Shown: positions 2,903 to 52,862, numbered from the stretch's first letter. The stretch: DNA of 55,346 nt from Patescibacteria group bacterium UBA2100 (GCA_002331185.1 DCYW01000019.1:1-55346); one strand, 5' to 3'. Notes: a model not told the origin generated them from the letters alone. Numbers and translations are program-made.

Positions 2903-3505
2903 TTACGCGAGCACCTTGTCGATTATTCCGTACTTCTTTGCTTCATCTGCTGTCATAAAGAAGTCACGATCGACGTCTTTTTCAATTTGTGCGAGTTTTT
3001 GCCCGGTGTTCTTTGCAAGAATTTTGTTAAGGGACTCACGAAGGCGCAAGATATGGCGTGCACTTATTTCAATGTCGGTGGCCTGTCCTTGGGCTCCACC
3101 CATTGGTTGGTGAATCATTACTTCTGAGTTTGAAAGAGCAAATCGTTTACCATTTGTTCCGGCACTGAGTAATACTGACCCCATTGAAGCTGCCATACCT
3201 ACGCAGATAGTCGAAACATCTGGCTTGATGTGCTTCATGGTGTCGAGAATAGCGAGGCCGGCACTTACGTGACCTCCGGGGGAGTTTATATACAGTGCAA
3301 TGTCTGCTTTTGGGTCTTCAGATTGCAGAAAAAGAAGCTGTGCAATAATCACGTTAGCAACATGGTCGTCGATACCTCCGCCGAGAAAGATAATACGCTC
3401 TTTAAGTAGGCGAGAGTATATGTCGTATGCTCGTTCACCGTATTGACCTTTTTCAATAACCATCGGTACGAGTTGTGCGCTTGATGTGTGGGTTTCATTG
3501 TTCAT
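2903..3505 (-). CDS. clpP: ATP-dependent Clp protease proteolytic subunit
   Basis: ClpP motifs [11 protein letters not shown] and MIHQP. Start moved to the internal ATG at 3505 (MNNETH..), because the ORF-track N-terminus looks like a non-coding extension. Confidence 0.93.
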
Positions 3506-3623
3506 ATCCGCGAAATATACCATGAGTTTGCGGCAACTCAAACGGTAACAGTGCCTCACTGTCCGTACACCTTGTTTTCTGAACCTAAGAGCATCGTGGC
3601 ATCATTACATTTTTCGCTACATA

Positions 3624-3666
3624 CCCATCACAACTGAGGGCATCCGCTGCCCTCAGTTGTGATGGG
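3624..3666. repeat. Hairpin with 18-bp perfect stem and 7-nt loop
   Basis: cccatcacaactgagggc / gccctcagttgtgatggg. It lies between tig and clpP, with no U-tract on either strand. Confidence 0.9.
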
Positions 3667-3701
3667 TTGTACGAATAGTCTGGAATCACGTATACACATA
3701 T

Positions 3702-4831: not shown

Positions 4832-4955
4832 GGGCGTGAGTGTATCAGCTGTTATATGACAATGCAAAACCACCTAGTCGTAACTTCGAGAAATAAGGAT
4901 TTCTATTGGTATAAAGTACACCTTGACGGTTTTGCACTACTTATATGCTCTGAAT

Positions 4956-5309
4956 TTAGAGATTCAATTCGAGTGATTCAAGATCAGCTTCGAGTTGTGC
5001 TTCGAACGAAGCAGTATCGAATGTACCCAAATCACTTTCTATTTGGTTTGGCTCATCGTTTGGAGTCGCTATACCCTCAGCAGGGTTCTCTTCAACAGTT
5101 GTATCTTCGTTGGGCACAGCATCTACACTTGAAAGAGAGTCCCAGTAATACAAACCACCAAATACAAGGAGGATAACGATTATGACGATTCCCACAAGAG
5201 GACCTGTGCCACCTGATTTATCAGATGTTTCTGCAACTGGTACATCTGTGTGTACTGGTTGTTCGATCGAGTTGCGTGTTGGGGGAGTGTTATTGTGTTG
5301 TTCTTCCAT
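4956..5309 (-). CDS. Hypothetical single-pass membrane protein with acidic tail
   Basis: One clear TM segment (LVGIVIIVILLVFGGLYYW) and a D/E-rich C-terminus. Confidence 0.5.
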   Translation of the reverse strand: MEEQHNNTPPTRNSIEQPVHTDVPVAETSDKSGGTGPLVGIVIIVILLVFGGLYYWDSLSSVDAVPNEDTTVEENPAEGIATPNDEPNQIESDLGTFDTASFEAQLEADLESLELNL

Positions 5310-5335
5310 ACGTTATTTTCTTTTAAAGAGAGTGA

Positions 5336-6280
5336 TTATTCAGTTTCCTCTGAACCATCAGTTGAGTTAGTAATGTCTTGTATTGCTCGCGTTGCGTCTT
5401 TAAGTGCACTGTGCGCTTCTTTTACCAATTCTGCTGCACTACGCACTGCTTTTTTTATTGAATCGAGATATTCTCGCGGAGCGTCTGACTCAAGAGCGTC
5501 TGTAAATATATTTCGTGCGTTGGCCACTGCACTTGCTGCTTCACTAATTGCTCGTTCTGCTTCTACAGCTGCAGTCGTCGCAGTCGTCGTATCAACTCCG
5601 TCTGCATCTAATTGTGCAAGTGTGTTATGTATACGGTCGAGAATCCTTGTAAAACTATCGAGCGCTCCACCAAGGCGACCCAGGATACCTTCTAATTGGC
5701 CTTTGATTCGGTTTCCGGCCTCACTCTTTATTTCGGCTCTTAATTCGCCACGTTGTTCGCGAATTTCTTCACGGAGATTTGCCGCACGTTCACGGAATCC
5801 ATCTCTTTTTTTCAATGCCTGTTCTCGCATTATGTCTCGTTTTGCCCGAGCTGCTTCCAGTATTACTTGTCGTTCCTCTGGTGTATCAGCTGCATCGAGT
5901 GCGTCTTTTACTTCATTTTTACGCATCTCCAATTCTTCTTTTGCCTGATCTCGCATGTCTTTACCTTCAGTAGTAAGCTCGTTACGCGTTTCAATAACAC
6001 GATTTTGAAATGCATCTCTCTTTTCTTTAATTGTATTCCGCACATCTTCGTTCTCTTTCTTTACGTTTTCTCTTGTTGCGCGAAATTCTTTTCGTACGTC
6101 TTGTTCCACTTTTTGTAGCGATCTAAAGGGAACTGGTTGTCCGTCAGGACCAAGGGGTTTTTCTGATCGCGGTGCTTGAAAAGCCTCTTGTGCCGAAGTC
6201 ACTTGCACTCCGACCATAAATGTTAGTGCAACAATTATTGCAAGCGTAATAGCAACCGATAATGAGTGAGTATTTGTCAT
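5336..6280 (-). CDS. Hypothetical secreted K/E/R-rich coiled-coil protein
   Basis: Signal-peptide-like N-terminus ending ..VTSAQE, then long charged helical repeats. Confidence 0.6.
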   Translation of the reverse strand: MTNTHSLSVAITLAIIVALTFMVGVQVTSAQEAFQAPRSEKPLGPDGQPVPFRSLQKVEQDVRKEFRATRENVKKENEDVRNTIKEKRDAFQNRVIETRNELTTEGKDMRDQAKEELEMRKNEVKDALDAADTPEERQVILEAARAKRDIMREQALKKRDGFRERAANLREEIREQRGELRAEIKSEAGNRIKGQLEGILGRLGGALDSFTRILDRIHNTLAQLDADGVDTTTATTAAVEAERAISEAASAVANARNIFTDALESDAPREYLDSIKKAVRSAAELVKEAHSALKDATRAIQDITNSTDGSEETE

Positions 6281-6351
6281 AAGATTTGTATATTACTAAT
6301 TTGTAACGTGCAGAAATATGCGACGGATGCCGCTTTTCTTACTCTATATGG

Positions 6352-6388
6352 TAACACCCCCTGCTCGCGTAGCGAGCAGGGGGTGTTA
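6352..6388 (-). terminator. Hairpin downstream of ppa
   Basis: 17-bp GC-rich stem taacaccccctgctcgc/gcgagcagggggtgtta. Confidence 0.65.
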
Positions 6389-6409
6389 ATTGAGCCTCAG
6401 TATAGTATA

Positions 6410-6940
6410 TTACTTCTCAAATTTCTCTTTGTAGATATTAATTCCCTCAGTAATTGCGTGTTTTGCAGCTTCTGCACCTTCAATACCGTTAACTTCTACC
6501 TCTTTATTCTGGAGTTTCTTGTATGTTCCAAAGAAGTGCTCAATTTCCTTCAGGGTATGAGGGTTAATATCAGACTTGTCTTGCACGGAATCCCATCGAG
6601 GGTCTTCTGTTGGTACTGCAATAACTTTGTCATCATTGTCGCCACCATCAATCATCTTTAGGAGTGCCACTGGGCGTACTCGAGCGAGTATTCCTGGGTA
6701 TAGTGGGTGTGTTGTAAGAACAATAACGTCAAGTGCATCGTCATCATGCCAATATGTTTGCGGTACGAATCCGTAATCAAATGGGTAGTCTTGTGCAGTG
6801 TGCATGACTCGATCGAGCGCAATCATACCTGTTTTCTTGTCGATTTCATACTTGTTTTTTGAGCCGCGGTTAATCTCGATAATGACGTTTGCTTCATCAG
6901 GCGTGTTTTCACCTGCGGTTACATCGTGCCAAAGGTTCAT
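6410..6940 (-). CDS. ppa: Inorganic pyrophosphatase (family I)
   Basis: 176 aa with the soluble PPase pattern (KYEIDKKTG.., DDDALDVIVL, DDKVIAV). Confidence 0.92.
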   Translation of the reverse strand: MNLWHDVTAGENTPDEANVIIEINRGSKNKYEIDKKTGMIALDRVMHTAQDYPFDYGFVPQTYWHDDDALDVIVLTTHPLYPGILARVRPVALLKMIDGGDNDDKVIAVPTEDPRWDSVQDKSDINPHTLKEIEHFFGTYKKLQNKEVEVNGIEGAEAAKHAITEGINIYKEKFEK

Positions 6941-6989: not shown

Positions 6990-8318
6990 TTATTCTTTTT
7001 CTGCCCCTTCTGACTGCTTTGCATGCGCAGACATGGCAGGTAGGTCTTCAGTGTCAGTATCTGTTTCTTTCTTTTCTTCTTGTTCCGTAACTATCTCTTC
7101 CTTATGATCTTCAGTTTCTTCCACTGCTTCTTTTGTTTCGGTTGGTGCTGGTATCTCAACTTCTCCCTCGCCGTCAGTTTCAGCAAGTGCTTCTCCGTGG
7201 GCTGATTTAATATCAATACCCCAACCGGTGAGCTTTGCAGCGAGACGTACATTTTGACCTCCGCGCCCAATAGCGAGTGATTGTTGGTCTTCAGTCACTT
7301 CAACGGCTGCTCGTTTTTCATCTTCTGAAATTTCTACCGAAAGAGTTTCTGCTGGCGAGAGTGCACGTTCAATAAATTCACGAGTGTCTTCCGACCATTC
7401 GATAATATCTATTTTTTCTCCCCCCAACTCACTGGTTACAGTAGAAACACGTACTCCACGTTGTCCGACGAGCGAACCAACTGGATCAATGTGATCATCG
7501 TGTGTTACTACAGCAAGCTTTGAACGAGAGCCAGCCTCACGTGCAACTTCTTTTATTTCTATTGTTCCATTTGCAAGTTCTGGAGACTCAAGTTCGAATA
7601 AACGTAACAGGAACTGTGGGTGTGAACGAGATAATTTAAGGAATGTTCCGCGCGGGCTTTCATCTACTTTATATAAAAGAGCTCGAATGCGCTCACCTTG
7701 ACGATACCGCTCTCCTGGGATTTGTTCTTCGTACGGCAAAATACCAGTTGCACGTCCGAGATCTACATAGAGGTTTCCACGTTCGAATCGTTGTACGTGC
7801 CCTGAAACGACCTGACCTTCGTGTTCACCAAATTCTTCTATAATAGATACTTTTTCTGCTTCACGAATCTTTTGCATGATTACTTGCTTGGCGGTTTGTG
7901 CTGCAATGCGACCAAAGTCTTCTTGTGCTTCAAGAGGGAAATCTACTTCGTCATCAAGTTCAACTCCTTTCTTAATGAGACGAGCATCTTCTATCATGAT
8001 GTGGTGTTCGGGATTAAAGCGTGTTCGTTCATCATCGGTTGCTATTTCAGCCGGTTCCTCTCCGCCAGCTGCCGGATTCTCTTCCTCTGGACGGACAAGT
8101 GTTTCATCTACGACAATCTTTATCTGCTTAAATTCTACGTCTCCCATTTCGGTATTAAATGCAGCACGAATGATTTGACCACGTTTTCCGTACTCTTTTT
8201 TATACGCCGCGGCGAGTGCCATCTCGATAGCGCTGATGACCTTCTCACGGGGGATTCCCCGGTCTTCTTCTAACTCACCAAGGACTGAATTAATTACTTT
8301 CAAATCAAATAAACTCAT
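6990..8318 (-). CDS. nusA: Transcription termination/antitermination factor NusA
   Basis: NusA N-domain, S1-like and tandem KH segments (GRGGQNVRLAAKLTGWGIDI), and an acidic tail. Confidence 0.92.
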   Translation of the reverse strand: MSLFDLKVINSVLGELEEDRGIPREKVISAIEMALAAAYKKEYGKRGQIIRAAFNTEMGDVEFKQIKIVVDETLVRPEEENPAAGGEEPAEIATDDERTRFNPEHHIMIEDARLIKKGVELDDEVDFPLEAQEDFGRIAAQTAKQVIMQKIREAEKVSIIEEFGEHEGQVVSGHVQRFERGNLYVDLGRATGILPYEEQIPGERYRQGERIRALLYKVDESPRGTFLKLSRSHPQFLLRLFELESPELANGTIEIKEVAREAGSRSKLAVVTHDDHIDPVGSLVGQRGVRVSTVTSELGGEKIDIIEWSEDTREFIERALSPAETLSVEISEDEKRAAVEVTEDQQSLAIGRGGQNVRLAAKLTGWGIDIKSAHGEALAETDGEGEVEIPAPTETKEAVEETEDHKEEIVTEQEEKKETDTDTEDLPAMSAHAKQSEGAEKE

Positions 8319-8541
8319 AATTTTTTAGGTTACCACACTGATTTTTGTAAAAAGAAAGACCGACACAAGGTCGGACTATTCATAAACAGTATGTACTACG
8401 CAGTATACCGACTACCCGAAACCAAGTCAATACTGTTCGATACTGGACCAAGAGTGTTTTTGCACAGTGAAAAGAGGGCTTTGAATGTATGATTTGATAT
8501 ACTTACGTACAAGAGGGTGCAATAAGCACCTGTGTTATCAC

Positions 8542-10287
8542 ATGTACATTAATGACGAACAACTTCGCGAATTTTTAAGCGACTCAGGACTTGTTTCGCA
8601 GAAAAAGTTTGATAACGCTGTTAAAACAGCTACTGAAAAAGGTATTACGGTGAGCGAAGTGTTGGTATCAGAAGGAGAAATTTCTGAAGATGATTTGCGA
8701 CGCTCACATGCCTACGTACTAGGTATTCCTTTTGTTAATTTATCTGATTCAAAACCAGACCTCAATACACTCGCTCTTATTCCAGAACCTATTGCACGAC
8801 GCAATAATATTGTAGCGTTTAGACAAGAGGAAAATAAGTTGGAAGTTGCCATGCTCGACACCGACGACTTAGCAGCAATCGATTTCGTAAAAAAGAAGAC
8901 ACAACTTACGATTTTGCCACGGCTTACTGATGCCACATCAATTAAACAGATGCTCCGTTTATATCAAAAGACGCTCCGTGACGAACTAGGAGATGTTATT
9001 ACCCGTGAATCACAAACACTTGAAAAATTTGGGAAATTACAACCAGAGAATGAAAATGATTTACGAAAACTTGCGGAAGGAGTGCCAGCTGTGCGAGTGC
9101 TCGATTCATTGCTGCGTCATGCAATTGTACAAAACGCTTCTGATATTCATATTGAACCGCAAGAAGAGGCTCTTTTGGTACGGTATCGTATTGATGGAAT
9201 TTTGCATGATGCCATGTCGCTTCCAAGCAGTGCGACTGCTTCAATTACTGCCCGAGTAAAAATCTTAGCGAACTTACGGCTTGATGAAAAACGACTTCCA
9301 CAAGATGGGCGATTTCGAATGGAGACAGACGGCGATAGGGTGTCGTTCCGTGTTTCAGTACTGCCAACGTATCATGGAGAAAAAACAGTCATGCGATTGT
9401 TGCGTGAAGATGTATCTGGTTTTACATTAGAATCTCTTGGTTTTCATGGTGAAGGGCTTGAACGATCACACGATGCGACTCGAAAGAAAACAGGACTTAT
9501 TCTGGTGACTGGCCCAACAGGTTCTGGTAAATCAACAACGCTCTACACCATGTTGGATATTTTAAATACACCAGACGTGAATATCTCAACTGTGGAGGAT
9601 CCAATTGAGTATCAGATGAAACGCATAAACCAAACACAAGTACGACCAGACATTGGGTTCACCTTTTCCACAGGACTTCGCTCACTCGTGCGTCAAGACC
9701 CAGATATTATTATGGTTGGTGAAATTCGAGATCGCGAGACCGCAGCGCTCGCTATAAACGCGGCTCTCACGGGGCACTTAGTGCTTTCAACACTGCACAC
9801 CAACTCGGCTGCTGGAGCAGTGCCTCGCCTTATTGATATGGGAGTAGAACCGTTTTTGCTCGCCTCAACCCTACAGGTGGTTATTGGTCAAAGACTTGTG
9901 CGTACACTATGTAACGATAGAGAAGAATATAAATTATCCGCCGCAGAAATGAGAGGTCTAGAAGAGATGGCCGACCTAGGAGCAGTTTTGAAAGCGTTAA
10001 AAGAGGAAGACATTGTTTCTCAAAAAAGTACGTTTAAAAGCGTCTCTCTTTCAAAAGAAAAACCAACAAAAGAATGTGAAACTGGCTATAGTGGACGAAA
10101 AGGTATTCAAGAAGTGCTGCCGGTGACAGAGGGAATTAAGAAAATGATTCTCTCTGGATCTTCTGCTGATGCAATTGAAGATCAAGCACGAAAAGAAGGA
10201 ATGCTTACTATGCTCGAGGATGGTATCTACAAAAGCGCTTCAGGAACAACAAGTCTTGCAGAAGTGTTACGTGTTGTAAGTGAATAA
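8542..10287 (+). CDS. pilB: Type IV pilus / type II secretion assembly ATPase (PilB/GspE family)
   Basis: Walker A GPTGSGKST, Walker B DPDIIMVGEIRD, His box LTGHLVLSTLHTN. Start moved to the ATG at 8542. Confidence 0.9.
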   Translation: MYINDEQLREFLSDSGLVSQKKFDNAVKTATEKGITVSEVLVSEGEISEDDLRRSHAYVLGIPFVNLSDSKPDLNTLALIPEPIARRNNIVAFRQEENKLEVAMLDTDDLAAIDFVKKKTQLTILPRLTDATSIKQMLRLYQKTLRDELGDVITRESQTLEKFGKLQPENENDLRKLAEGVPAVRVLDSLLRHAIVQNASDIHIEPQEEALLVRYRIDGILHDAMSLPSSATASITARVKILANLRLDEKRLPQDGRFRMETDGDRVSFRVSVLPTYHGEKTVMRLLREDVSGFTLESLGFHGEGLERSHDATRKKTGLILVTGPTGSGKSTTLYTMLDILNTPDVNISTVEDPIEYQMKRINQTQVRPDIGFTFSTGLRSLVRQDPDIIMVGEIRDRETAALAINAALTGHLVLSTLHTNSAAGAVPRLIDMGVEPFLLASTLQVVIGQRLVRTLCNDREEYKLSAAEMRGLEEMADLGAVLKALKEEDIVSQKSTFKSVSLSKEKPTKECETGYSGRKGIQEVLPVTEGIKKMILSGSSADAIEDQARKEGMLTMLEDGIYKSASGTTSLAEVLRVVSE

Positions 10288-10290
10288 TAT

Positions 10291-11499
10291 ATGAAATTTA
10301 CCTACAAAGCAGAACGAGATGGTGAGACGTACACCGATACCATTGAAGCAACTGATAGGTTTGAAGTATATAGACACGTGCGCGCCGAAGGAGGCGCGGT
10401 AATTTCAGTGATTTCAGAAAAGCAAAATAACTGGAGTGTTACCTATTGGAATTCAAAATTCTCAACAGTAAAGGAACACGACAAAATTGTGTTCGCATCA
10501 AACCTTGCAGCTATGATTTCAGCCGGGCTTCCTATATCGCGCGCGCTTTCAGTGGCAGAGAGACAGGCAAAAAACCCTAAACTAAAGAGCGTTATATTGC
10601 ATGTGCGAGGGGATATTCAAAAAGGAGGCACGTTTCATGAGGCGCTTGGTAGATTTCCAGATGTCTTTTCGAAATTATTTGTCGCAATGGTTCGCGCTGG
10701 TGAAGAGTCGGGGACACTCGATGAAGCGCTTACAACAGTTGGCAATCAACTTCAGCGTTCGTATGAACTAAAAAAGAAAATCAAAGGAGCACTTATTTAT
10801 CCAAGCATTATTGTAGTGGCCATAGTCGGTATTGGATTTCTCATGATGACTGAAGTTGTGCCAACGTTGTCAAAGACATTCACAGAATTGGGGGCCGATT
10901 TACCAAAGGCAACGCAAGCAATTATTAATGTGAGTGATTTCTTAGTTAATTACACACTGCTTGTTTTACTTGGAGTCTTAGGTGCAGTGGCGGGAGTATA
11001 TGGAATTTTACGAACAGCTGGTGGTCAGCGTGGCAGAGATAAGATTCTTCTTTCGACCCCGCTAATTGGTGAGCTTGTGAAAGAAATTAATGCAGCACGA
11101 ACTGCTCGAACATTTGCATCACTTCTGGCTGCAGGTGTGGACATTTTGACCGCACTTCAAATTACCGGCGAAGTTGTACAAAATCATTATCACAAGGACG
11201 TGCTTAAAGCAGCAGCAGAAAAGGTGCAAAAAGGAGGCCAACTGTCAGATACATTTATGAAACGAGAAGACCTCTACCCGCCGCTTATGGGGGAGATGAT
11301 AGCAGTGGGAGAAGAAACAGGTGCACTTGCCGATATGCTTTTGCGTGTCGCTACTTTTTATGAAAGTGAAGTTGAGCAAAAGACAAAAAATATGTCGACC
11401 ATTATTGAGCCGTTTCTCATGTTGCTTATCGGTGTAACGGTTGGGTTCTTTGCTGTTGCGATGATTGGTCCTATCTACTCTCTTTCCGAAGCGTTTTAA
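10291..11499 (+). CDS. pilC: Type IV pilus platform protein (PilC/GspF family)
   Basis: Two GspF-type repeats with three TM segments, 3 nt downstream of pilB. Confidence 0.9.
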   Translation: MKFTYKAERDGETYTDTIEATDRFEVYRHVRAEGGAVISVISEKQNNWSVTYWNSKFSTVKEHDKIVFASNLAAMISAGLPISRALSVAERQAKNPKLKSVILHVRGDIQKGGTFHEALGRFPDVFSKLFVAMVRAGEESGTLDEALTTVGNQLQRSYELKKKIKGALIYPSIIVVAIVGIGFLMMTEVVPTLSKTFTELGADLPKATQAIINVSDFLVNYTLLVLLGVLGAVAGVYGILRTAGGQRGRDKILLSTPLIGELVKEINAARTARTFASLLAAGVDILTALQITGEVVQNHYHKDVLKAAAEKVQKGGQLSDTFMKREDLYPPLMGEMIAVGEETGALADMLLRVATFYESEVEQKTKNMSTIIEPFLMLLIGVTVGFFAVAMIGPIYSLSEAF

Positions 11500-11510
11500 C
11501 GTAATGGTAA

Positions 11511-11558
11511 CAATACAAAGCACACCTACTGATGCATCAGTAGGTGTGCTTTGTATTG
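11511..11558. repeat. 48-bp perfect palindrome with core CCTACTGATGCATCAGTAGG
   Basis: caatacaaagcacacctactgatg|catcagtaggtgtgctttgtattg is its own reverse complement. It lies between pilC and the first minor pilin, with no U-tract after it. Confidence 0.95.
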
Positions 11559-11589
11559 CTGTGGGGTACAGCTGTGGTCAACAGTGCGT

Positions 11590-11595
11590 TACAAT
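11590..11595 (+). promoter_or_regulatory. -10-like TACAAT 8 nt upstream of the first minor-pilin ATG
   Basis: Sequence match only; no SD. Confidence 0.3.
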
Positions 11596-11603
11596 ACTAA
11601 GTA

Positions 11604-12065
11604 ATGAAGTTTCAGGTTCTTTATACGCGAGGAGTAGGATTGCTTGAGATTGTGGTGGGGGTGTCACTCCTGACAACCGTGTTTGTCGGCATGTTTGGGA
11701 TTCTACAACTTGGAACTCGGCTGGCGACAGATAACAAATCTCGTACTGGTGCACTTGCACTGGCGACTGAGCGAATGGAGTACATACGAAGTCTTGACTA
11801 TGATGATATAGGAGTAGTGGGTGGTGACCCGTCTGGTGCACTTGTTGCAAGTGTACCTATCAACCTCAATAACATCGCATACACGCAACGTACTTATATT
11901 GTATATGTTGATGACCCAAAAGACGGTATTGGGGGATCTGATTCAAACGGAATTACTGATGACTATAAACGGGTGAAAGTAGAAGTTTCGTGGATTGGGC
12001 CGAAAAACAACGTACGAGAGACCACGTTAGTAAGTGATATTGCATCGTTACTAATAGAATCATAG
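11604..12065 (+). CDS. Prepilin-type minor pilin (PilV-like)
   Basis: N-terminus ..TRG|VGLLEIVVGVSLL has the class III signal pattern (Gly, then Glu at +5, then a hydrophobic helix). Confidence 0.7.
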   Translation: MKFQVLYTRGVGLLEIVVGVSLLTTVFVGMFGILQLGTRLATDNKSRTGALALATERMEYIRSLDYDDIGVVGGDPSGALVASVPINLNNIAYTQRTYIVYVDDPKDGIGGSDSNGITDDYKRVKVEVSWIGPKNNVRETTLVSDIASLLIES

Positions 12066-12066
12066 T

Positions 12067-12663
12067 ATGAAGTATTACGCATCACAGCGCGGATTTACCT
12101 TATTGGAAGCAGTTGTATTACTCGGCATATTTGTTTTGATTGTTGGGGCGATTGTTTCTTCACTGCGGTATGTGTATCGAGGGCAGCGGTTTGCTTTCGA
12201 ACAGGCGGATGCTACTCGTTCAGCACGTACTGGTATTGAGCGAGCAGTGCAAGATTTGCGCGAAGCCTCAGATGCAGACAATGGTGCGTATCCGATTATT
12301 GCGATGGCAACAAGTAGTGTTTCTTTCTATAGTGATTACGATAATGATAATAAGATTGAGCAGATTCGATATTTTATAGATGGATCTGATTTTAAAAAAG
12401 GAATTATAGAATCAGCAGGAAACCCACCAACATATAATGCTGGAAGTGAGGTGGTTACTACTATCGCAACTGATGTTCGCAATAATGCAATTGGTACACC
12501 CATGTTTACTTACTATGATAAGAGCGGGGTGCTTATGAGCGATTATACTGATATAGCTCAATTAGCGTTCGTGACATTGCGACTTGTTGTTAATTTACAT
12601 CCAGAACGAGCTCCTGATGATTTCGAGCTCAGAAGTAGCGCTGCACTTCGTAACATTAGATAA
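12067..12663 (+). CDS. Prepilin-type minor pilin (PilW-like)
   Basis: Canonical QRG|FTLLEAVVLLGIFVLIV cleavage/methylation motif. Confidence 0.8.
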   Translation: MKYYASQRGFTLLEAVVLLGIFVLIVGAIVSSLRYVYRGQRFAFEQADATRSARTGIERAVQDLREASDADNGAYPIIAMATSSVSFYSDYDNDNKIEQIRYFIDGSDFKKGIIESAGNPPTYNAGSEVVTTIATDVRNNAIGTPMFTYYDKSGVLMSDYTDIAQLAFVTLRLVVNLHPERAPDDFELRSSAALRNIR

Positions 12664-12664
12664 T

Positions 12665-14068
12665 ATGAATCATTCTTCACAACAAGGAATCGTCATCATT
12701 TTAGTTTTGGTGTTTGCTGCAGTATTTGGTTTGTCAGTCTCAGCACTTACGAGTTTCATATTTAGCCAAGCGAAACTTGGAGCGGGAAAAGAAGTGCGTG
12801 AACAGGCACTGAATATCGCCGAAGCAGGGCTTGAATACTATCAGTGGTTCCTTACACATAATCCTGGCGATACTCAAGACGGGACTGGGGGTGTTGGGCC
12901 CTACGTGCGTACTTATTCTGATCCAGAAACAGGTGAAATAGGCTCGTTTAGTTTGGATGTCGTTGGTAATGAATCGTGTGGGATATTACAATCAATTGAC
13001 GTTACGTCAACTGGTACTGTGAACTCTGATCCCAAGTTTACTCGCACTGTTTTTGGAAGGCATGCTACCCCTTCCGTTGCAGAGTACTCATACATTATAG
13101 GCGATGATGTATGGGCTGGTGCTAATCGTGAAATTACCGGGCCGTATCATTCAAATGGAGGCATACGCATGGATGGGACTAATAATTCAGTGGTTACCAG
13201 TGCTGTCTCAAGTTGGTCAGAGAGCTTTAACTGCAACGGTGGGAGTGCGTCTCCTGGGGTGTGTGGCGATGGGCCAAATTCTACTTTGTGGCAATATCCA
13301 GGGTCGCCTATAAGTTTTGACGACATGGAGACATCTTTCCCGACAATAAAAACCGCAGCAACTACAGATGGTATTTATCTTGCTCCCTATGGCTCGACAG
13401 AGATAAATTGGTACGGATATATTTCTGCAGTTGACGGGTACCACCTCATCTTTAATGCAGACGGTACTGTTGATATATATCAAGTCACAGGTACGAATTG
13501 GACGTTTGGGTACCGCACTGGTATTGGGTATACACTCGATTACAATACTATAACCGCGGAGTCATTTATAGAACGAAGAACCATTCCCACTGACTGCCCA
13601 GTTATTTTTGTCGAAGATAAGGTATGGATTGAAGGAACCGTAAAAGGCAAGGTGACTGTTATCGCGGCTGACTTAGTAAACGCAGGGTATGATCCCGATG
13701 TCATTATTAATGACGATATTAATTACTCGGTACAAGATGGCTCCGACGGATTGACGGTCATCAGTGAGTTCGGCATTTATATACCACCGAACTCTCCAGA
13801 CAATCTTTCAATTAATGGTATTTTTGTTGCACAAGGTGATCGGTTTGGCAGACCATACTATGAAGGTGACGTGAAAACACAACTCACCATAAAAGGATCT
13901 ATTATTTCAAGTGGGCGAGTGGGGACTGCATGGTTATCTGGTTCCACAACTGTTTCTGGGTATCAAAATCGAGACAATATATATGATCGACTACAAACAA
14001 CAAATCCGCCCCCATTCACGCCATCGAGCACTCTTATTCCAGAATATATTCTTTGGCAGGAATTATAG
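12665..14068 (+). CDS. PilX-N-terminal-like large pilus-associated protein
   Basis: N-terminus QQGIVIILVLVFAAVFGLSV resembles the PilX N-terminal helix, followed by a 430-aa Gly/Thr/Asn-rich region. Start moved to the ATG at 12665, 2 nt after the upstream stop. Confidence 0.6.
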   Translation: MNHSSQQGIVIILVLVFAAVFGLSVSALTSFIFSQAKLGAGKEVREQALNIAEAGLEYYQWFLTHNPGDTQDGTGGVGPYVRTYSDPETGEIGSFSLDVVGNESCGILQSIDVTSTGTVNSDPKFTRTVFGRHATPSVAEYSYIIGDDVWAGANREITGPYHSNGGIRMDGTNNSVVTSAVSSWSESFNCNGGSASPGVCGDGPNSTLWQYPGSPISFDDMETSFPTIKTAATTDGIYLAPYGSTEINWYGYISAVDGYHLIFNADGTVDIYQVTGTNWTFGYRTGIGYTLDYNTITAESFIERRTIPTDCPVIFVEDKVWIEGTVKGKVTVIAADLVNAGYDPDVIINDDINYSVQDGSDGLTVISEFGIYIPPNSPDNLSINGIFVAQGDRFGRPYYEGDVKTQLTIKGSIISSGRVGTAWLSGSTTVSGYQNRDNIYDRLQTTNPPPFTPSSTLIPEYILWQEL

Positions 14069-14082
14069 TTGACGTGTGCTAC

Positions 14083-14118
14083 AAAAAGAAAGACTCTTGC
14101 AAAACGGTCTTTCTTTTT
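14083..14118 (+). terminator. Intrinsic terminator after the pilin operon
   Basis: Stem aaaaagaaagac/gtctttcttttt with a T-run. Confidence 0.7.
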
Positions 14119-14324
14119 GGGACCAACAATATATTACTGCATGGTTGGGGTGCCAGACGGTAAAGACATAAGATTGACGTGCAGATGTCTTGCGAAACGA
14201 TTCGCTGCTGCTTCACACAGGAATCTCTCTAAATCGTTTTCCAAATGGTTTATCCGACATAGTGAAAACTCCTTTTGCTGCACGTCTATCGGTATTAGAT
14301 AGAAAGACTTTCGATACTATAAGC

Positions 14325-14362
14325 GTTAACAGACCTACTGATGCATCAGTAGGTCTGTTAAC
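14325..14362. repeat. 38-bp perfect palindrome with the same 20-bp core
   Basis: gttaacagacctactgatg|catcagtaggtctgttaac. It lies 27 nt upstream of the tpiA ATG, after the pilin genes. Confidence 0.95.
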
Positions 14363-14373
14363 GAGTGGAGTGA

Positions 14374-14382
14374 TGGTATACT
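14374..14382 (+). promoter_or_regulatory. Extended -10 (TGgTATACT) 6 nt upstream of the tpiA ATG
   Basis: Sequence match only; no SD between it and the ATG. Confidence 0.4.
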
Positions 14383-14388
14383 TTCAAA

Positions 14389-15141
14389 ATGAAATCAGTC
14401 ATTTGTAATTGGAAAATGAATCCTGCTTCATTTGTTGAAGCAAAGCGACTCTTTGATGTAACGAAAACGCTTGCAGCATCTGTGAAGAAGGTAGATATCG
14501 TTGTTGTTCCTCCTGTTGTTTTCTTGCGCGAGCTTGCCAAAGGGTACCGAGGTACTCGTGTAGAATTTGGTGCACAGAATATTTCAACTGAAGGTAGCGG
14601 GTCGCATACTGGAGAAACTGCTGCAGCACACGTTCGTGATGCAGGCGCAACACATACTATTATTGGGCACGCTGAACGCCGTGCTCTTGGTGAGACAGAT
14701 GAGCGTGTAAGTAAAAAAGTGGTACGTGCGCTTGAAAATAAAATCGATTGTATCGTTGCAGTTGGAGAAAGCGAGCGTGATGAACATGGGGAATATGTAC
14801 AGATGGTACGTAATCAAATTGTTATCGCACTACGAGAAGTTCCTGCAGCGAGATTTAAAAATATAACTATTGCCTACGAACCGATATGGGCAATTGGGGC
14901 GCCAACTGCACCTGATGCAAACGAAGTGCATCAAATGATGTTATTGGTTCGAAAAACGGTACGCGATGCGTTTGGCGACAAAGCACTTAAAGCGATACGC
15001 GTTGTTTACGGAGGAGCAGTAAATGAAGAGAATGCGCATGATATATTGAGTGTTCCAGATCTGGATGGTGTATTGGTAGGGAGAGCGAGCTTAGAACCAA
15101 CTCAACTGAAGGCAATAATACAGGCTGCACAAAGCGCATGA
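14389..15141 (+). CDS. tpiA: Triosephosphate isomerase
   Basis: NWKMN start, IGHAERR, AYEPIWAIG, YGGAV motifs. Confidence 0.93.
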   Translation: MKSVICNWKMNPASFVEAKRLFDVTKTLAASVKKVDIVVVPPVVFLRELAKGYRGTRVEFGAQNISTEGSGSHTGETAAAHVRDAGATHTIIGHAERRALGETDERVSKKVVRALENKIDCIVAVGESERDEHGEYVQMVRNQIVIALREVPAARFKNITIAYEPIWAIGAPTAPDANEVHQMMLLVRKTVRDAFGDKALKAIRVVYGGAVNEENAHDILSVPDLDGVLVGRASLEPTQLKAIIQAAQSA

Positions 15142-19529: not shown

Positions 19530-19937
19530 ATGAATAAAATTATTTGCTATACGGATGGTGCGTCGCGTGGGAATCCTGGATTGGCATCAGCAGGGGCGGT
19601 TATTTTTCAAGGCGAAAGTGTACTCGCTGAGATTCGTTCACCACTGGGTGTTCAAACCAATAACTGGGCTGAATATGAGGCAGTGGTACAAGTGTTGCAA
19701 AAAATTAGAGAGTTAGACGTGTCGGACAGACGCATTGAAATACGTATGGATAGTAAACTGGTTGCTGAGCAACTTTCAGGAAATTGGAAGATAAAAAAAG
19801 ATACACTGCGCGAGCAATACAATAAGATCCAAGACATTCTTCAAGATGGTTTTGGAGACGTTGCATACGTCCATGTTCGACGAGAAAAAAATACCTATGC
19901 AGACAGGTTGGCAAACGAAGCGCTAGACGCTCAGTGA
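19530..19937 (+). CDS. rnhA: Ribonuclease HI family protein
   Basis: YTDGASRGNPG.., NNWAEYEA, MDSKLV, ..ADRLANEA: an RNase H DEDD-type pattern. Confidence 0.85.
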   Translation: MNKIICYTDGASRGNPGLASAGAVIFQGESVLAEIRSPLGVQTNNWAEYEAVVQVLQKIRELDVSDRRIEIRMDSKLVAEQLSGNWKIKKDTLREQYNKIQDILQDGFGDVAYVHVRREKNTYADRLANEALDAQ

Positions 19938-21379
19938 GTATGTACCGATTTCTCCCCGTATTATTCGGGGCGTTTGCCTTGGGGGTTGCAGCACGATCAT
20001 TTTATGAAGTTGGTTTGGCTTTTGTAGGCCTTTTTGTTTTGAGTGCCCTGTGTATACTCCTGATATCACTGCGCCAACTGTTCGCGGCATGTGCGATAGT
20101 TCTTTTATTCTTTGCCTTGGGAGTTGGGCGTATGCATATCGCGATACCTACTGTGAATACAGACATGCACACAGAAGGCACTATTGTATTCGAAGGCGTG
20201 GTTGTAAGAGAACCAGATATTCGCGAAACATACACAAATATAGTTGTTGCACGAAATGATACAGCACAAAAAGTATTGGTAAGGACAACTTCTTTTGAGA
20301 ATATTTTTTATAAAGATAGCGTGCGAATACGTGGAACTCTTGAAGTTCCTGAAAATTTTGAAGGTGACGGAGGAAGGATTTTTAATTACAGAGCATATCT
20401 AGCAAAGGACGCTATTTACAGCATAATGGCGTTTCCTGAACTTGAAGTAATTACCAGTCGCTCAACCCCAACAGGATTTCTCTTGGCACTAAAAGGTAGG
20501 TACTTGGAATCATTAAAAGCTATTTTGCCTGAACCTTCAGCGGCACTTGCGGGAGGCATTACTGTCGGTGAGAGGCGTTCATTAGGCGATGAACTCACGC
20601 AAGATTTCCGTGACACAGGGCTCATACATATTGTAGTGCTCTCTGGTTACAATATTGCGATTGTCGTGTTGTTTATTGTTGCACTACTTTCATTTTTGCC
20701 GACTAAACCGAGGCACCTGGTTGCTATTGGAGGCATCATTTTATTTACTATTTTAGTTGGTGCTTCAGCAACAGTGGTACGCGCCGCAATAATGGGGAGT
20801 ATTGCCTCGTTGGGAGTTGTGGCGGGGCGCACCTCTACTGCACTCCATACGCTCATGCTTGCTGGATTTGCTATGTTGCTATGGAATCCGTATCTATTGA
20901 TATATGATCCATCGTTCCAGCTTAGTTTCGTAGCAACTGCCGGATTGTTACTTGGAGTTCCACTACTTTTACCTCATCTTTCTTTTATTCCTGAAAAATA
21001 CGCACTTCGAGACATTTTCGCAGCTACTATTGCAACACAAATCGCTGTACTTCCGTTATTGGTGTATATGATAGGTGATATTTCATTAGTGGCAGTACTC
21101 GTTAATCTCCTCGTACTTCCGACAATACCCTTAGCTATGCTGTTTGTATTTTTGACTGGTGTAGTAGGAATGGTATTTCAACCACTCGCACTCTTGTTTG
21201 GAGTCATCGCGTACGCTTTCTTGTCGTATGTGATTTTACTCGTAGAGTTTTTTGCTGATGTCCCATTTGCGGTTATGAGCCTGCCAACATTTTCTTTTGC
21301 GTTTGTGGTTCTTGCATACGGGTTACTGAGTGCACTCGTATGGTATATACAAAGAAAAAACGGCTCAGTACAGAATTAA
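19934..21379 (+). CDS. comEC: ComEC/Rec2 competence channel, membrane part only (DUF4131-like plus competence domain)
   Basis: GLIHIVVLSGYNIAIV motif and about 10 TM helices; no metallo-beta-lactamase domain. Start is GTG 19934 (GTGA overlap with rnhA) or ATG 19940. Confidence 0.8.
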   Translation: MSMYRFLPVLFGAFALGVAARSFYEVGLAFVGLFVLSALCILLISLRQLFAACAIVLLFFALGVGRMHIAIPTVNTDMHTEGTIVFEGVVVREPDIRETYTNIVVARNDTAQKVLVRTTSFENIFYKDSVRIRGTLEVPENFEGDGGRIFNYRAYLAKDAIYSIMAFPELEVITSRSTPTGFLLALKGRYLESLKAILPEPSAALAGGITVGERRSLGDELTQDFRDTGLIHIVVLSGYNIAIVVLFIVALLSFLPTKPRHLVAIGGIILFTILVGASATVVRAAIMGSIASLGVVAGRTSTALHTLMLAGFAMLLWNPYLLIYDPSFQLSFVATAGLLLGVPLLLPHLSFIPEKYALRDIFAATIATQIAVLPLLVYMIGDISLVAVLVNLLVLPTIPLAMLFVFLTGVVGMVFQPLALLFGVIAYAFLSYVILLVEFFADVPFAVMSLPTFSFAFVVLAYGLLSALVWYIQRKNGSVQN

Positions 21380-22747: not shown

Positions 22748-22877
22748 ATAAATATAACTATGTGCTAATTACACGCATCATACCACGCACTTTTTGATAT
22801 ACCATCATAGAACACATAAGAGTAGCGACTTCATTCCCGTCTTTTGCTAAGTTTTTTGTGCACACGTATATATTGTA

Positions 22878-22901
22878 AATATACTGATGCATCATTATAT
22901 T
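22878..22901. promoter_or_regulatory. 24-bp near-palindrome AATATAcTGATGCATCAtTATATT (one mismatched pair) at the TrpR/YerC-like gene start
   Basis: Same TGATGCATCA core. It overlaps a TATACT -10-like hexamer (22880-22885) and the first candidate ATG. Confidence 0.6.
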
Positions 22902-23345
22902 GACACTATGGCTTTCGTGTCCAAAAAGGTTTTTTCTACAGAAACGCAGAAACGTATTCGACAGCAGTTTATTGAATTATTTGCACGACAAAGAACGCGC
23001 AAAGCTATAGCGACCGTTCTTGATCAACTTCTTACTGATACTGAACGAATGATGGTGGCAAAACGGATTGTTTTGATTCTTATGTTGCATAACAACAGTT
23101 CGTACTATGAGATATACGAGGCGCTTGGCATTAGTACCGACACATCTGCCAGATGGCACACACTACTTAAAGCAGGGGAATTAGAGGCAATCACGAAAAG
23201 TCTAAAGCAGAAAAAAAGCAGGGAACATTTATTGGATACAGTGGAGATTATTTTACGCAGCGGTATGCCACCTATTGCTGGGAGAGATCGTTATTCGAGA
23301 ACATTCCAACTTATAGCTGAGGTGAAACAAAAAAAGCGTTGGTAA
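22887..23345 (+). CDS. TrpR/YerC-YecD-like helix-turn-helix DNA-binding protein
   Basis: LLTDTERMMVAKRIVLILML..SYYEIYEALGISTDTSARW matches the YerC/TrpR-like HTH pattern. The start could be ATG 22887 (inside a palindrome) or ATG 22908 (MAFVSKK). Confidence 0.6.
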   Translation: MHHYIDTMAFVSKKVFSTETQKRIRQQFIELFARQRTRKAIATVLDQLLTDTERMMVAKRIVLILMLHNNSSYYEIYEALGISTDTSARWHTLLKAGELEAITKSLKQKKSREHLLDTVEIILRSGMPPIAGRDRYSRTFQLIAEVKQKKRW

Positions 23346-23349
23346 TAAC

Positions 23350-23367
23350 ATAATGATGCATCATTAT
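23350..23367. promoter_or_regulatory. 18-bp perfect palindrome ATAATGATGCATCATTAT at the start of the ComEC-MBL gene
   Basis: It shares an identical 17-mer, TGATGCATCATTATATT (23354-23370), with 22885-22901. Confidence 0.6.
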
Positions 23368-24234
23368 ATTTCGGGAAATAGACTAAAGATTAGCGGAGTG
23401 CTCATATGCATGATGTTGGTGATCACAATAATTATTTGGTATCCGATTCTTAATACTGAGAATCACAAAACTCTTTCTGTTTCGTTTCTTGATGTAGGGC
23501 AGGGCGATGCAATTTTTGTTACGACTCCAAGCGGTAGGCAGATACTGATAGATGGGGGAAAAGACAATAGTGTGTTACATCAACTCAATGACGTGATGCC
23601 ATTTTGGGATCGGTCGATTGATGTTGTTGTTGCAACACACCCAGATGCCGACCACATAGGTGGGCTCGTTGAGGTGCTGAAACGCTATCGTGTTGCCACT
23701 TTCGTTTATTCTGGGGTGGAACAGGACACACAAGAAAATAATGCGATACTATCTTTAGTTCTTGAAAAAGATATTTATTCAGTTGCTGCGAGAAGAGGCC
23801 AGACCTATGATTTTGGAGATGGGGTCACCATGACTATACTGTTTCCAGATAGGGAAGTACGTGAGCTCGAATCAAACGCGGCGTCAGTTGTTGCACGAGT
23901 TGACTTTGGCGCGCATTCGTTTCTGCTCACGGGGGACGCCCCAAAAATGATAGAAGAGTACCTGCTTTCTTTAGGGAATGATCAATTGCAAAGCACAGTA
24001 CTTAAAGCAGGACACCATGGGTCAAAGACATCAAGTTCTCCTTTGTTTGTTGGATTTGTAGCACCAGAGTATGTAGTGATGTCGCGTGGGTGTAATAACA
24101 GATACGGACATCCACACGAAGAAGTTATAGCTGTATTGAATAATTTTGAGATTACTACATTCGATACCTGTGATGATGGACGAGTTACGTTTACTAGTGA
24201 CGGGCAGATACTACAGATTGAGGGATTTGACTAA
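23353..24234 (+). CDS. ComEC-type metallo-beta-lactamase domain protein (detached C-terminal ComEC module)
   Basis: One N-terminal TM helix, then FLDVGQGDAIFV.., VVATHPDADHIGG, GHHGS: the ComEC MBL nuclease-like domain. Confidence 0.8.
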   Translation: MMHHYISGNRLKISGVLICMMLVITIIIWYPILNTENHKTLSVSFLDVGQGDAIFVTTPSGRQILIDGGKDNSVLHQLNDVMPFWDRSIDVVVATHPDADHIGGLVEVLKRYRVATFVYSGVEQDTQENNAILSLVLEKDIYSVAARRGQTYDFGDGVTMTILFPDREVRELESNAASVVARVDFGAHSFLLTGDAPKMIEEYLLSLGNDQLQSTVLKAGHHGSKTSSSPLFVGFVAPEYVVMSRGCNNRYGHPHEEVIAVLNNFEITTFDTCDDGRVTFTSDGQILQIEGFD

Positions 24235-30535: not shown

Positions 30536-30559
30536 CATTCGTAACAGTAGGGGAATTAT

Positions 30560-30597
30560 AAAAACAAAACGACACTCTTCAGTGTCGTTTTGTTTTT
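30560..30597 (+). terminator. Intrinsic terminator after fusA
   Basis: 17-bp stem aaaaacaaaacgacact/agtgtcgttttgttttt. Confidence 0.8.
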
Positions 30598-30782
30598 ATA
30601 CAGTTTCTCTTGACTCAGCACATGGTTTTGCTACCATGTGTCCACGCGTGTTGCGCGCTTTTTTATATTGTGTGCGCAGTGTGTAATTAATAATGCGATT
30701 GCACAATGTAGGGTAGCAGTTCTCGCGCCTCTACGTTGGGTAATCGTCGGGATGTACTCCCACTAATAATAAACGTAATTTT

Positions 30783-48580: not shown

Positions 48581-48625
48581 TCAACCATCTGTGACCAAGG
48601 TCGAACCTTGGTCACAGATGGTTGA
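48581..48625. repeat. Hairpin with 20-bp perfect stem and 5-nt loop
   Basis: tcaaccatctgtgaccaagg / ccttggtcacagatggttga, in the non-coding region after map. Confidence 0.9.
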
Positions 48626-52691: not shown

Positions 52692-52805
52692 GAGAAAAGC
52701 CGGAGGGCATTCCTGCTTAATTGCATTTACAGGGAGATTGAATTGTTCACTACCGTGGTAGCTGATACTGAAATCACCCACCTGGTATTCTCCAGGTATG
52801 CCCAC

Positions 52806-52848
52806 GGCACGTAAAAACTCGCTAGATTCTAGCGAGTTTTTACGTGCC
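52806..52848. repeat. Hairpin with 20-bp perfect stem and 3-nt loop
   Basis: ggcacgtaaaaactcgctag / ctagcgagtttttacgtgcc, 33 nt upstream of the beta-CASP RNase ATG. Confidence 0.9.
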
Positions 52849-52862
52849 GACACAAAGAGACA

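Follow-up and report, generated by a model that had tools for sequence, protein, structure and literature searches.

A stretch of 55,346 nucleotides from Patescibacteria group bacterium UBA2100 (GCA_002331185.1 DCYW01000019.1:1-55346), here called the window, carries the pilB and pilC genes of a type IV pilus, a cassette of minor-pilin genes and, on either side of that cassette, two large perfect palindromes with a common core. The core motif recurs at both ends of a gene for a 145-aa TrpR-family protein 8.5 kb away, and the question treated here is whether the motif serves as the operator of that protein. The window derives from a marine Patescibacteria (Parcubacteria/Kaiserbacteria-like) genome with a G+C content of ~43%, and near-identical contigs were found in TARA and other ocean assemblies. 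To our knowledge gene regulation in Patescibacteria (Candidate Phyla Radiation, CPR) is largely uncharted, and type IV pili and ComEC are held to play a central part in the way these bacteria live, dependent on hosts and scavenging DNA. Natural competence has been demonstrated in Saccharibacteria (PMC10187176). The features of the window are as follows.

8485-10287, plus strand: pilB (T2SSE ATPase), Pfam T2SSE 4e-122
10291-11499, plus strand: pilC (T2SSF platform), Pfam T2SSF 4e-63, directly upstream of palindrome 1
11511-11558: palindrome 1, 48 bp, perfect; predicted operator core ~11522-11547, 20-mer 11525-11544
11590-11595: TACAAT, predicted -10 of the minor-pilin operon, kept beside the ATG in relatives
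11604-12065, 12067-12663 and ~12665-14068 (PilX-like), plus strand: minor-pilin cassette of three genes, proposed target operon
14082-14119: terminator hairpin, inside an insert 3' of the PilX-like gene
ATG at 14260, minus strand: remains of a decayed HIT-like gene (MSDK...), in the strain-variable insert 14069-14323
14324-14363: palindrome 2, 40 bp, perfect; predicted operator core ~14331-14356, 20-mer 14334-14353
14374-15141, plus strand: tpiA, including a predicted extended -10 TGGTATACT (14374-14382), ATG at 14389; Pfam TIM 5.5e-67
19934-21379: ComEC N-terminal gene (DUF4131 and Competence domains)
22877-22902: site 3, predicted operator within the predicted promoter of the TrpR-like gene; position weight matrix (PWM) score 36.6 bits
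22908-23345, plus strand: TrpR-family helix-turn-helix (HTH) gene, 145 aa with a C-terminal extension, proposed regulator of the four sites
23346-23371: site 4, predicted operator directly 3' of the TrpR-like stop codon (23343-23345); PWM score 36.5 bits
23356-24234, plus strand: ComEC metallo-beta-lactamase (MBL) domain gene, proposed target gene

The palindromes and their shared core

Palindrome 1 consists of two 24-nt arms with a loop of 0 and begins 11 nt past the pilC stop codon. An earlier reading of the window from its sequence alone (the sequence-only reading) had described it as a perfect 48-bp palindrome at 11511-11558, which is exactly what is found. The same reading gave palindrome 2 as a perfect 38-bp palindrome at 14325-14362; its perfection holds, whereas its length is really 40 bp (14324-14363), one base more on each side. 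Palindrome 2 lies between the start of the decayed HIT-like gene and tpiA, with 25 nt from its last base to the ATG at 14389. It had been placed just after the last pilin gene but stands 256 nt past the PilX-like stop (14068), beyond both the terminator and the decayed gene.

The claimed 20-bp core common to both palindromes, CCTACTGATGCATCAGTAGG, is borne out and is not matched in 100 shuffles even when 3 mismatches are allowed. The identity in fact reaches 22 bp (ACCTAC...GTAGGT), and the next outer pair differs symmetrically, being C/G in palindrome 1 and G/C in palindrome 2. The central 10-mer, TGATGCATCA, occurs at 11530, 14339, 22885 and 23354, which agrees with the earlier count of two copies beyond the palindromes and with their rarity by chance: four are observed against 0.08 expected, and no shuffle had four. 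The sites at 22885 and 23354 also have a 17-nt direct repeat, TGATGCATCATTATATT, in common. Long perfect hairpins are common in the window (e.g. 52805-52849, 48581-48625, 30557-30600 and 3623-3667), and because they are not rare it is the shared core, and not length alone, that distinguishes the two palindromes. When the literature was searched for the 10-mer, nothing but primers and sequences of unrelated origin came up.

Several of the other hairpins are observations in their own right. Those at 52805-52849, 48581-48625 and 3623-3667 lie between co-directional genes and have perfect arms of 20-22 nt, loops of 1-5 nt and no U-tract, which suggests that long perfect palindromes tend to occur throughout the genome. 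A further perfect hairpin of 37 nt at 6352-6388 (TAACACCCCCTGCTCGC gta GCGAGCAGGGGGTGTTA), likewise with no U-tract, lies between two minus-strand genes; both of its 17-nt arms are identical in the sister species (L012, 2256-2292) and were not found in more distant relatives.

At the RNA level the two palindromes might set pilBC apart from the minor pilins and insulate tpiA, be it as terminators without a U-tract, as processing sites or as stabilisers, with the core as a preferred apical stem-loop. Very stable folds are predicted on both strands, with -37.2/-39.1 kcal/mol in palindrome 1 and -32.7/-30.1 kcal/mol in palindrome 2 (z -7 to -10), and such a role would suit both the position of palindrome 1 close behind pilC and the other long perfect hairpins between co-directional genes. 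The arm differences between palindromes 1 and 2, and between the window and L012, are moreover symmetric and preserve pairing. Nevertheless we regard this explanation as unlikely. As the sequence-only reading had noted, neither palindrome is followed by a T-run; a terminator scan made no call at them, whereas ordinary A/U-flanked terminators exist in the same window, among them the one reported at 14083-14118, a real hairpin that spans 14082-14119. Rfam gave zero family matches anywhere in the window, and palindrome 2 lies upstream of both of the divergent -10 elements predicted around it. Further evidence against an RNA role comes from the motif and from its relatives, as set out below.

A TrpR-like protein and its candidate operator

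The gene at 22908-23345 encodes a protein that matches the Pfam family Trp_repressor (PF01371) with 34.8 bits against a cutoff of 27 (E=1.8e-8). Its AlphaFold2 model has a predicted local distance difference test score of 76.4, and all 11 Foldseek matches in the PDB with a probability of at least 0.9 are to the E. coli TrpR or a putative S. aureus TrpR. These matches reach a probability of 0.99, with target-normalised TM-scores of 0.62-0.74 and a root-mean-square deviation down to 2.6 Å, at weak E-values of 0.4-2; the model thus predicts the all-helical TrpR fold. The protein is ~40 aa longer than TrpR owing to a conserved C-terminal segment (..GMPPIAGR..RW). An exhaustive profile search recovered 1108 family clusters at E<=1e-10, mostly of 130-145 aa, whereas a word-based search gave few relatives. 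Some of the relatives are labelled YerC by their sources, and one is from Candidatus Wolfebacteria. Among viral contigs neither a match to the 20-mer nor a relative of the TrpR-like profile was found.

Both ends of this gene carry the motif. The start codon (22908) lies 6 nt past TATATT (22896-22901) and is apparently leaderless, and site 3, which bears the 10-mer at 22885, fills the 17-nt spacer of the predicted promoter formed by TTGTAA (22873-22878) and TATATT, so that the candidate operator overlaps the predicted promoter of the regulator itself. The 10-mer of site 4 begins 8 nt past the stop codon, and the site covers the start codon of the MBL gene (23356). The latter gene matches positions 418-663 of the 663-position NCBIfam ComEC_Rec2 profile (E=1.1e-39) as well as Pfam Lactamase_B.

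A consensus and a PWM were derived from the 30 half-sites, of 13 nt each, of 15 sites in the window and its relatives. The motif is a dyad of ~26 bp with the consensus AAAYMTAMTGATG/CATCAKTAKRTTT. Half-site positions -5 to -1 and -8 are invariant, position -11 is A in 29/30, and positions -8 to -5 read T, A, C/A, T around a fixed 8-bp centre, GATGCATC. With this PWM the window's own four sites reach 35.5-36.6 bits (36.5 for palindrome 1, 35.5 for palindrome 2), while the next best position in the window reaches 4.0 and the maximum of 20 shuffles 17.5; the sites are therefore all-or-none. The central 10 bp are unchanged in 15/15 sites, even at the third-codon positions of the MBL start, and it is the outer arms that vary. 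This combination of an invariant centre and variable arms fits sequence-specific recognition better than a structural stem, in which compensated changes would be tolerated in the apical 10 bp as well. An RNA role also sits poorly with the sites in the regulators' own promoters, which precede the predicted transcription start and whose perfect arms measure only 5-10 bp.

The register of the dyad, TACT at -8 to -5, an 8-bp gap and AGTA, is that of the E. coli TrpR operator consensus TGTAcTnGTnnACnAgTACA. More generally, TrpR-family operators, including those of HisR/YerC, are 20-bp palindromes with a lineage-specific consensus whose regulators often autoregulate, about half of hisR genes being autoregulated (PMC9413887). 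We therefore propose that the shared 20-bp core, within its ~26-bp dyad, is probably the operator of the TrpR-like protein, a reading to which we assign a rough probability of 0.65. A dimeric-regulator operator, with the TrpR/YerC-like protein as candidate, was among the roles suggested by the sequence-only reading, and it is the one that gains comparative support, namely from co-occurrence with the gene, the TrpR geometry and the site in the regulator's own promoter.

In this proposal a dimer of the TrpR-like protein would bind the dyad. The analysis shows the sites and their conservation, the association with the gene, the TrpR-like geometry and the TrpR-like fold of the protein; the binding itself, its direction and any ligand we infer, as we do the promoters and leaderless starts. 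Placed between the -35 and -10 elements of the regulator's own promoter, site 3 would mediate autorepression. Site 4, at the junction of the regulator stop and the MBL start, could block read-through, form a loop with the upstream site or control the MBL gene. Binding at palindrome 1 could act either as a roadblock to read-through from pilBC or at an upstream activator site. Palindrome 2, a gain of this species alone between tpiA and the decayed HIT-like gene, overlaps the -35 zones of two predicted divergent promoters. The four sites would thus tie the type IV pilus and its minor-pilin operon, together with part of the DNA-uptake channel, to one regulator. The minor-pilin genes themselves are identified by matches to N_methyl, PilX_N and ComGE/ComGF, all of them weak, and by gene calls in conspecific contigs.

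The centres of palindrome 1, palindrome 2 and site 3 lie 55.5, ~33.5 and 6.5 nt, respectively, from the predicted -10 elements of the minor-pilin operon, tpiA and the regulator. A single fixed distance between site and -10 was considered and rejected, since these three values differ.

Similar systems are known, and the candidate pair resembles E. coli TrpR in Pfam family and predicted fold, in the 20-bp dyad with its TACT register and 8-bp gap, as at the trpEDCBA, aroH and trpR operators, and in having an operator in its own promoter (consensus from PMC9413887). It differs in the length of the protein (145 aa, with the conserved ~40-aa C-terminal extension), in a central 8 bp that is fixed as GATGCATC, in predicted targets that belong to the pilus and ComEC and not to amino-acid biosynthesis, in a second site that is always 3' of the gene and in free-standing sites with 40-48 bp of perfect symmetry. 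HisR (YerC/YecD), the histidine repressor of Firmicutes, is likewise a small TrpR-family repressor with 20-bp lineage-specific palindromic operators (PMC9413887), but its motif is cacTTTAnnnnnnTAAAgtg, it is shorter than 100 aa, and no his genes lie near the window regulator. Both NCBIfam equivalog models score the window protein below their cutoffs (TIGR01321 TrpR, 24.7 against 67.25; TIGR02531 YerC/YecD, 17.1 against 42.2), and we thus take the regulator for a separate subfamily. Systems in which a TrpR-family regulator controls itself through a palindromic operator are an already known kind. New with respect to the literature searched, in which no TrpR-family regulon described for Patescibacteria turned up, are this subfamily, its motif, the site-gene-site layout and the probable tie to the pilus and ComEC in Patescibacteria.

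A number of points weigh against the operator proposal. The missed equivalog cutoffs are one of them, and the promoters and leaderless starts are predicted from sequence only. Palindrome 1 is not placed as a classical repressor site would be, its centre being ~68 nt upstream of the likely transcription start. The site in the spacer between pilC and the first pilin can be checked in only two gene-carrying lineages, in both of which it is present; site counts as a whole cover only the compared loci and the window. Finally, an operator needs ~20-26 bp, and protein binding does not account for 40-48 bp of perfect symmetry. This excess recurs in free-standing sites elsewhere (L029:2106), and structure may thus matter.

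Gene and sites across lineages

Relatives were compared at loci anchored on tpiA, so that a single 20-kb locus spans both the pilin and the regulator regions. The closest sister is a complete Candidatus Kaiserbacteria genome (L012, CP070993.1) whose tpiA is 88% identical. The exact 10-mer recurs there at three positions orthologous to those of the window: the pilC/pilin spacer, the spacer of the regulator promoter and the regulator stop codon. The pilC/pilin site is here a 24-bp palindrome, AACATACTGATGCATCAGTATGTT, and its half-site when symmetrised reads TGTACTGATGCATCAGTACA. The spacer measures 104 nt in both the window and L012, and in both the palindrome centre lies 55.5 nt before TACAAT despite diverged flanks. 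As an RNA hairpin this orthologue would fold weakly (-12.4 kcal/mol, z -1.8), which again disfavours an RNA role.

The gene is carried by the window, L012, L017, L018 and L029, with protein identities of 61-100%; against the window protein the values are 73% for L017 and 61% each for L018 and L029. In 5/5 carrier lineages the exact TGATGCATCA flanks the TrpR-like gene on both sides, at its predicted own promoter and at its stop codon. The promoter layout of site 3 is repeated in L012, L017, L018 and L029, and also, with a different motif, in the more distant L030, and site 4 is kept in the same four relatives.

No TrpR-like gene occurs in the DNA covered by eight further syntenic loci from seven lineages (L013, L014, L016, L020, L021, L022, L024 and L027; L019 duplicates the L013 lineage), and these hold 0 exact sites in ~130 kb although their pilus and ComEC genes are kept. 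The junction between the superoxide dismutase (SOD) and MBL genes, where the regulator gene stands in carriers, is covered only in L013, L014, L021 and L024. The best PWM score among the non-carriers, 14.9 bits (L022 2243-2268, ACATATGGAGTTGCATCATTAGATGT), is within the shuffle range and comes from a contig that excludes the regulator region. Their pilC/pilin spacer measures as little as 27 nt and contains no hairpin, a further point against an RNA role. On a neighbour-joining tree of SOD and MBL the carriers and non-carriers interleave, with a clean split in 0/200 bootstraps; accordingly, joint loss of the gene and its sites probably happened several times.

Among more distant homologues the layout persists while the motif changes. 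The homologue in L028 (41% identity) has copies of the TTCGATGTATCGAA type on its flanks and lies beside a LexA-like gene and ComEC. That in L030 (31% identity) has TACGATATATCGTA on both sides, the upstream copy lying in the spacer of a predicted TTGTAA-17-TAGTAT promoter, and two further copies nearby are found in perfect palindromes of 30 and 28 bp with different outer arms. The distant homologues are thus bracketed by different GAT-NN-ATC palindromes, the general form of the centre being YGAT-RY-ATCR, and the retention of a site-gene-site layout whose motif changes with the protein is what is expected of a regulator and its operator.

The settings of these two homologues may be noted in passing. 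In L028 the TrpR-like gene is divergent from the LexA-like (Peptidase_S24) gene, with an SOS-box-like GAACGTTCGTTC between them (1730-1750) and ComEC nearby. In L030 the homologue adjoins tRNA-like genes (identified by eye) and is near four T4SS-pilin-like genes (1100-1450 and 4900-6620), which makes this another DNA-transfer context for the family.

It could also be imagined that the motif is the terminal repeat of a mobile or selfish HTH unit, of which palindromes 1 and 2 are solo copies resembling miniature inverted-repeat transposable elements (MITEs). The gene is indeed bracketed by the motif in every lineage whatever its neighbours, its distribution among close relatives is patchy, and palindrome 2 would be a recent extra copy that agrees with palindrome 1 throughout the 22-bp core. 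The sites of a single genome moreover have lineage-specific flanks in common, which resembles concerted evolution, and the protein matches the IS630 transposase HTH (E=3e-4), though weakly and far below the cutoff. We nonetheless hold a mobile origin to be quite improbable, as no catalytic transposase domain or recombinase is called nearby and no target-site duplications are seen. All five close lineages have the gene at one and the same SOD/MBL position, and the spacing of the pilin site is exact across species; this constancy argues for vertical inheritance with losses. Copies share the core only and occur at conserved regulatory positions, whereas MITE families share their outer arms; no transposase is called in the window region, and this comparison with repetitive extragenic palindromic (REP) elements and MITEs covers the window and the compared loci. 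Viral contigs, as mentioned, gave no matches.

L029 holds four copies of the 10-mer in 3.5 kb. The one at L029:2106 is a 30-bp quasi-palindrome with ACCTAC...GTAGGT-type flanks like those of palindromes 1 and 2. Another, a 20-nt operator copy (AACCTAATGATGCATCAGTA) at 3139-3180, lies within the MBL coding sequence. The latter corresponds to substitutions in homologous but different codons (LESNAASV to LEPNDASV) with no indel in the protein alignment, on which grounds a MITE-type insertion was rejected: this copy arose by substitution.

A DNA-uptake sequence (DUS) was another of the roles entertained in the sequence-only reading, since Neisseria DUS also form inverted pairs, which give rise to hairpins after genes and near competence genes much as intrinsic terminators do. 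The motif does stand beside pilus and ComEC genes and has the form of such a pair, but its density is far too low for this role to be anything other than very improbable. A DUS would be expected about once per kb, also within genes and in every genome that has the same uptake machinery, whereas the motif has 4 copies in 55 kb, each at the boundary of a gene and not in its body, with no window position scoring between the sites at 36 bits and 4 bits. Unlike Neisseria DUS or terminators, it combines a constant centre with variable arms, lacks a U-tract and tracks the regulator gene, being absent from the ~130 kb of non-carrier relatives that keep the same uptake genes. In 185,579 GTDB species genomes the 18-mer CTACTGATGCATCAGTAG has only 6 matches, all in unrelated taxa, against a rough chance expectation of ~9.

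The sequence-only reading had furthermore described the two palindromes as bracketing the pilin cassette, with a recombination or inversion site as a possible role. They would then be crossover sites for inversion or excision of the cassette in phase or antigenic variation. Pilin loci are classic targets of such switches, the cassette is flanked by an identical 22-bp core, and two assemblies (contig L011 and a scaffold gap in L007) end exactly at 14331. Relative to L012, L013, L017 and L027, however, positions 14069-14388 of the window are an insert that holds the terminator hairpin, the HIT-like remains and palindrome 2, and palindrome 2 is absent from all four; in L012 only 18 nt separate the PilX-like stop from the tpiA start. 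Two alleles exist within the species, since the identity between L009 and the window is ~70% on the left of 14331 but 99.9% on its right, and L009 has only a 26-bp palindrome in its diverged insert (L009 150-560). The assembly ends at 14331 are accounted for by the boundary of this diverged allele. All four conspecific contigs or scaffolds that reach the cassette follow the window co-linearly for as far as each of them extends, none being inverted or deleted, and no recombinase gene is called within ~10 kb. The motif also flanks the regulator gene and occurs at places that have no cassette. Given the missing palindrome 2 in the sister species, the co-linear contigs and the lack of a called recombinase, the bracketing is best seen as an incidental, lineage-specific coincidence and not as the mark of an invertible or excisable unit, which we consider highly unlikely.

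The spacer between the PilX-like gene and tpiA is a hot spot of small variable inserts, with unrelated inserts in L014 and L016 and none in L012, L013 and L017. L027 (a Logan contig of 5106 bp) is a fold-back inverted duplication in which pilX-tpiA-pgk is joined to pgk-tpiA-pilX, probably an assembly artefact at the palindromic terminator after pgk.

The operator reading yields a testable regulator-operator pair, a 26-bp motif with four sites that would link the minor-pilin operon to the gene for the ComEC nuclease domain, and the link of the regulator to DNA-uptake genes is plausible. Its family comprises more than 1000 sequence clusters, in which each gene is apparently bracketed by a palindrome of its own; if confirmed, this would allow regulon prediction in many uncultured genomes.

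Long perfect arms and minor features

Whereas the conserved motif ends at ~+/-13, palindromes 1 and 2 stay perfect to +/-24 and +/-20 with unrelated sequences, which amounts to 7-11 bp of extra perfect symmetry per arm outside the conserved motif. Sites that overlap a -10 element or coding sequence mostly have perfect arms of 5-6 bp, with three cases of 9-12 bp. The longest arms belong to free-standing sites, namely palindromes 1 and 2, L012:7429 and the quasi-palindrome L029:2106. In the L030 copies at 151-180 and 245-272 the length is partly due to an A/T-rich outer consensus.

Quasipalindrome template switching is a known replication error in E. coli and yeast that perfects imperfect inverted repeats (PMC7202029, PMC3820800), and by analogy it would account for perfect, site-specific arms around a shared core. 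Our guess, and the weakest step of the proposed mechanism, is that template switching during replication extended a pre-existing perfect dyad, lengthening the arms where no promoter or coding constraint opposes. The growth of the arms at a constant 104-nt spacer in the window and L012 is consistent with this, and so is the symmetric change from C/G in palindrome 1 to G/C in palindrome 2. The extra left arm of palindrome 2 has ~2/7 matches to L009 against ~73% in the neighbouring ~26 nt (rough binomial p ~0.03); most of the difference between the window and L009 at palindrome 2 belongs to the diverged allele, over ~250 nt, and only the excess in the 7-nt arm is suggestive of a template switch. 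For palindrome 1 a by-eye comparison with the L012 flanks was uninformative as to the ancestral arm, with ~38-44% identity on both sides.

Alternatively, the long arms may be under selection. In such a case the TrpR-like protein, through its C-terminal domain, would recognise or be switched by an operator extruded as a cruciform or hairpin, or a hairpin of single-stranded DNA (ssDNA), which is a speculative idea that we think doubtful at best. Were it true, the free-standing sites would act on pilus and DNA-uptake genes as structural switches that respond to supercoiling or ssDNA, and such switches would belong to a large uncharacterised Patescibacteria-wide family of operator-bracketed regulators. 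Under either view, the growth of free-standing operators into perfect palindromes of 40-48 bp is relevant to the question of how reduced genomes produce and tolerate palindromes, and it is this part of the system that could prove more than ordinary.

The remaining observations concern the surrounding genes. ComEC is split into two genes ~2 kb apart, one with the DUF4131 and Competence part and the other with the MBL part, and in some lineages SOD and the TrpR-like gene stand between the two. SOD, near the TrpR-family gene in the window, is on the minus strand. Alongside tpiA the window carries pgk as a neighbour. The predicted extended -10 of tpiA ends 6 nt before the ATG at 14389, and TGGTACAAT is kept ahead of this ATG in L012, L013 and L017. 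The first minor-pilin gene (11590-11606), tpiA (14374-14391) and the TrpR-like gene (22896-22910) each have a good -10 element 6-8 nt ahead of the ATG and no Shine-Dalgarno sequence, a short layout that is also kept in relatives and suggests, by sequence, that leaderless mRNAs are common in this clade. Finally, the cumulative GC skew has its minimum at ~8000-8500, where gene orientation changes from minus to plus between nusA (6990-8318) and pilB (8485), and this region may be a replication origin or terminus.

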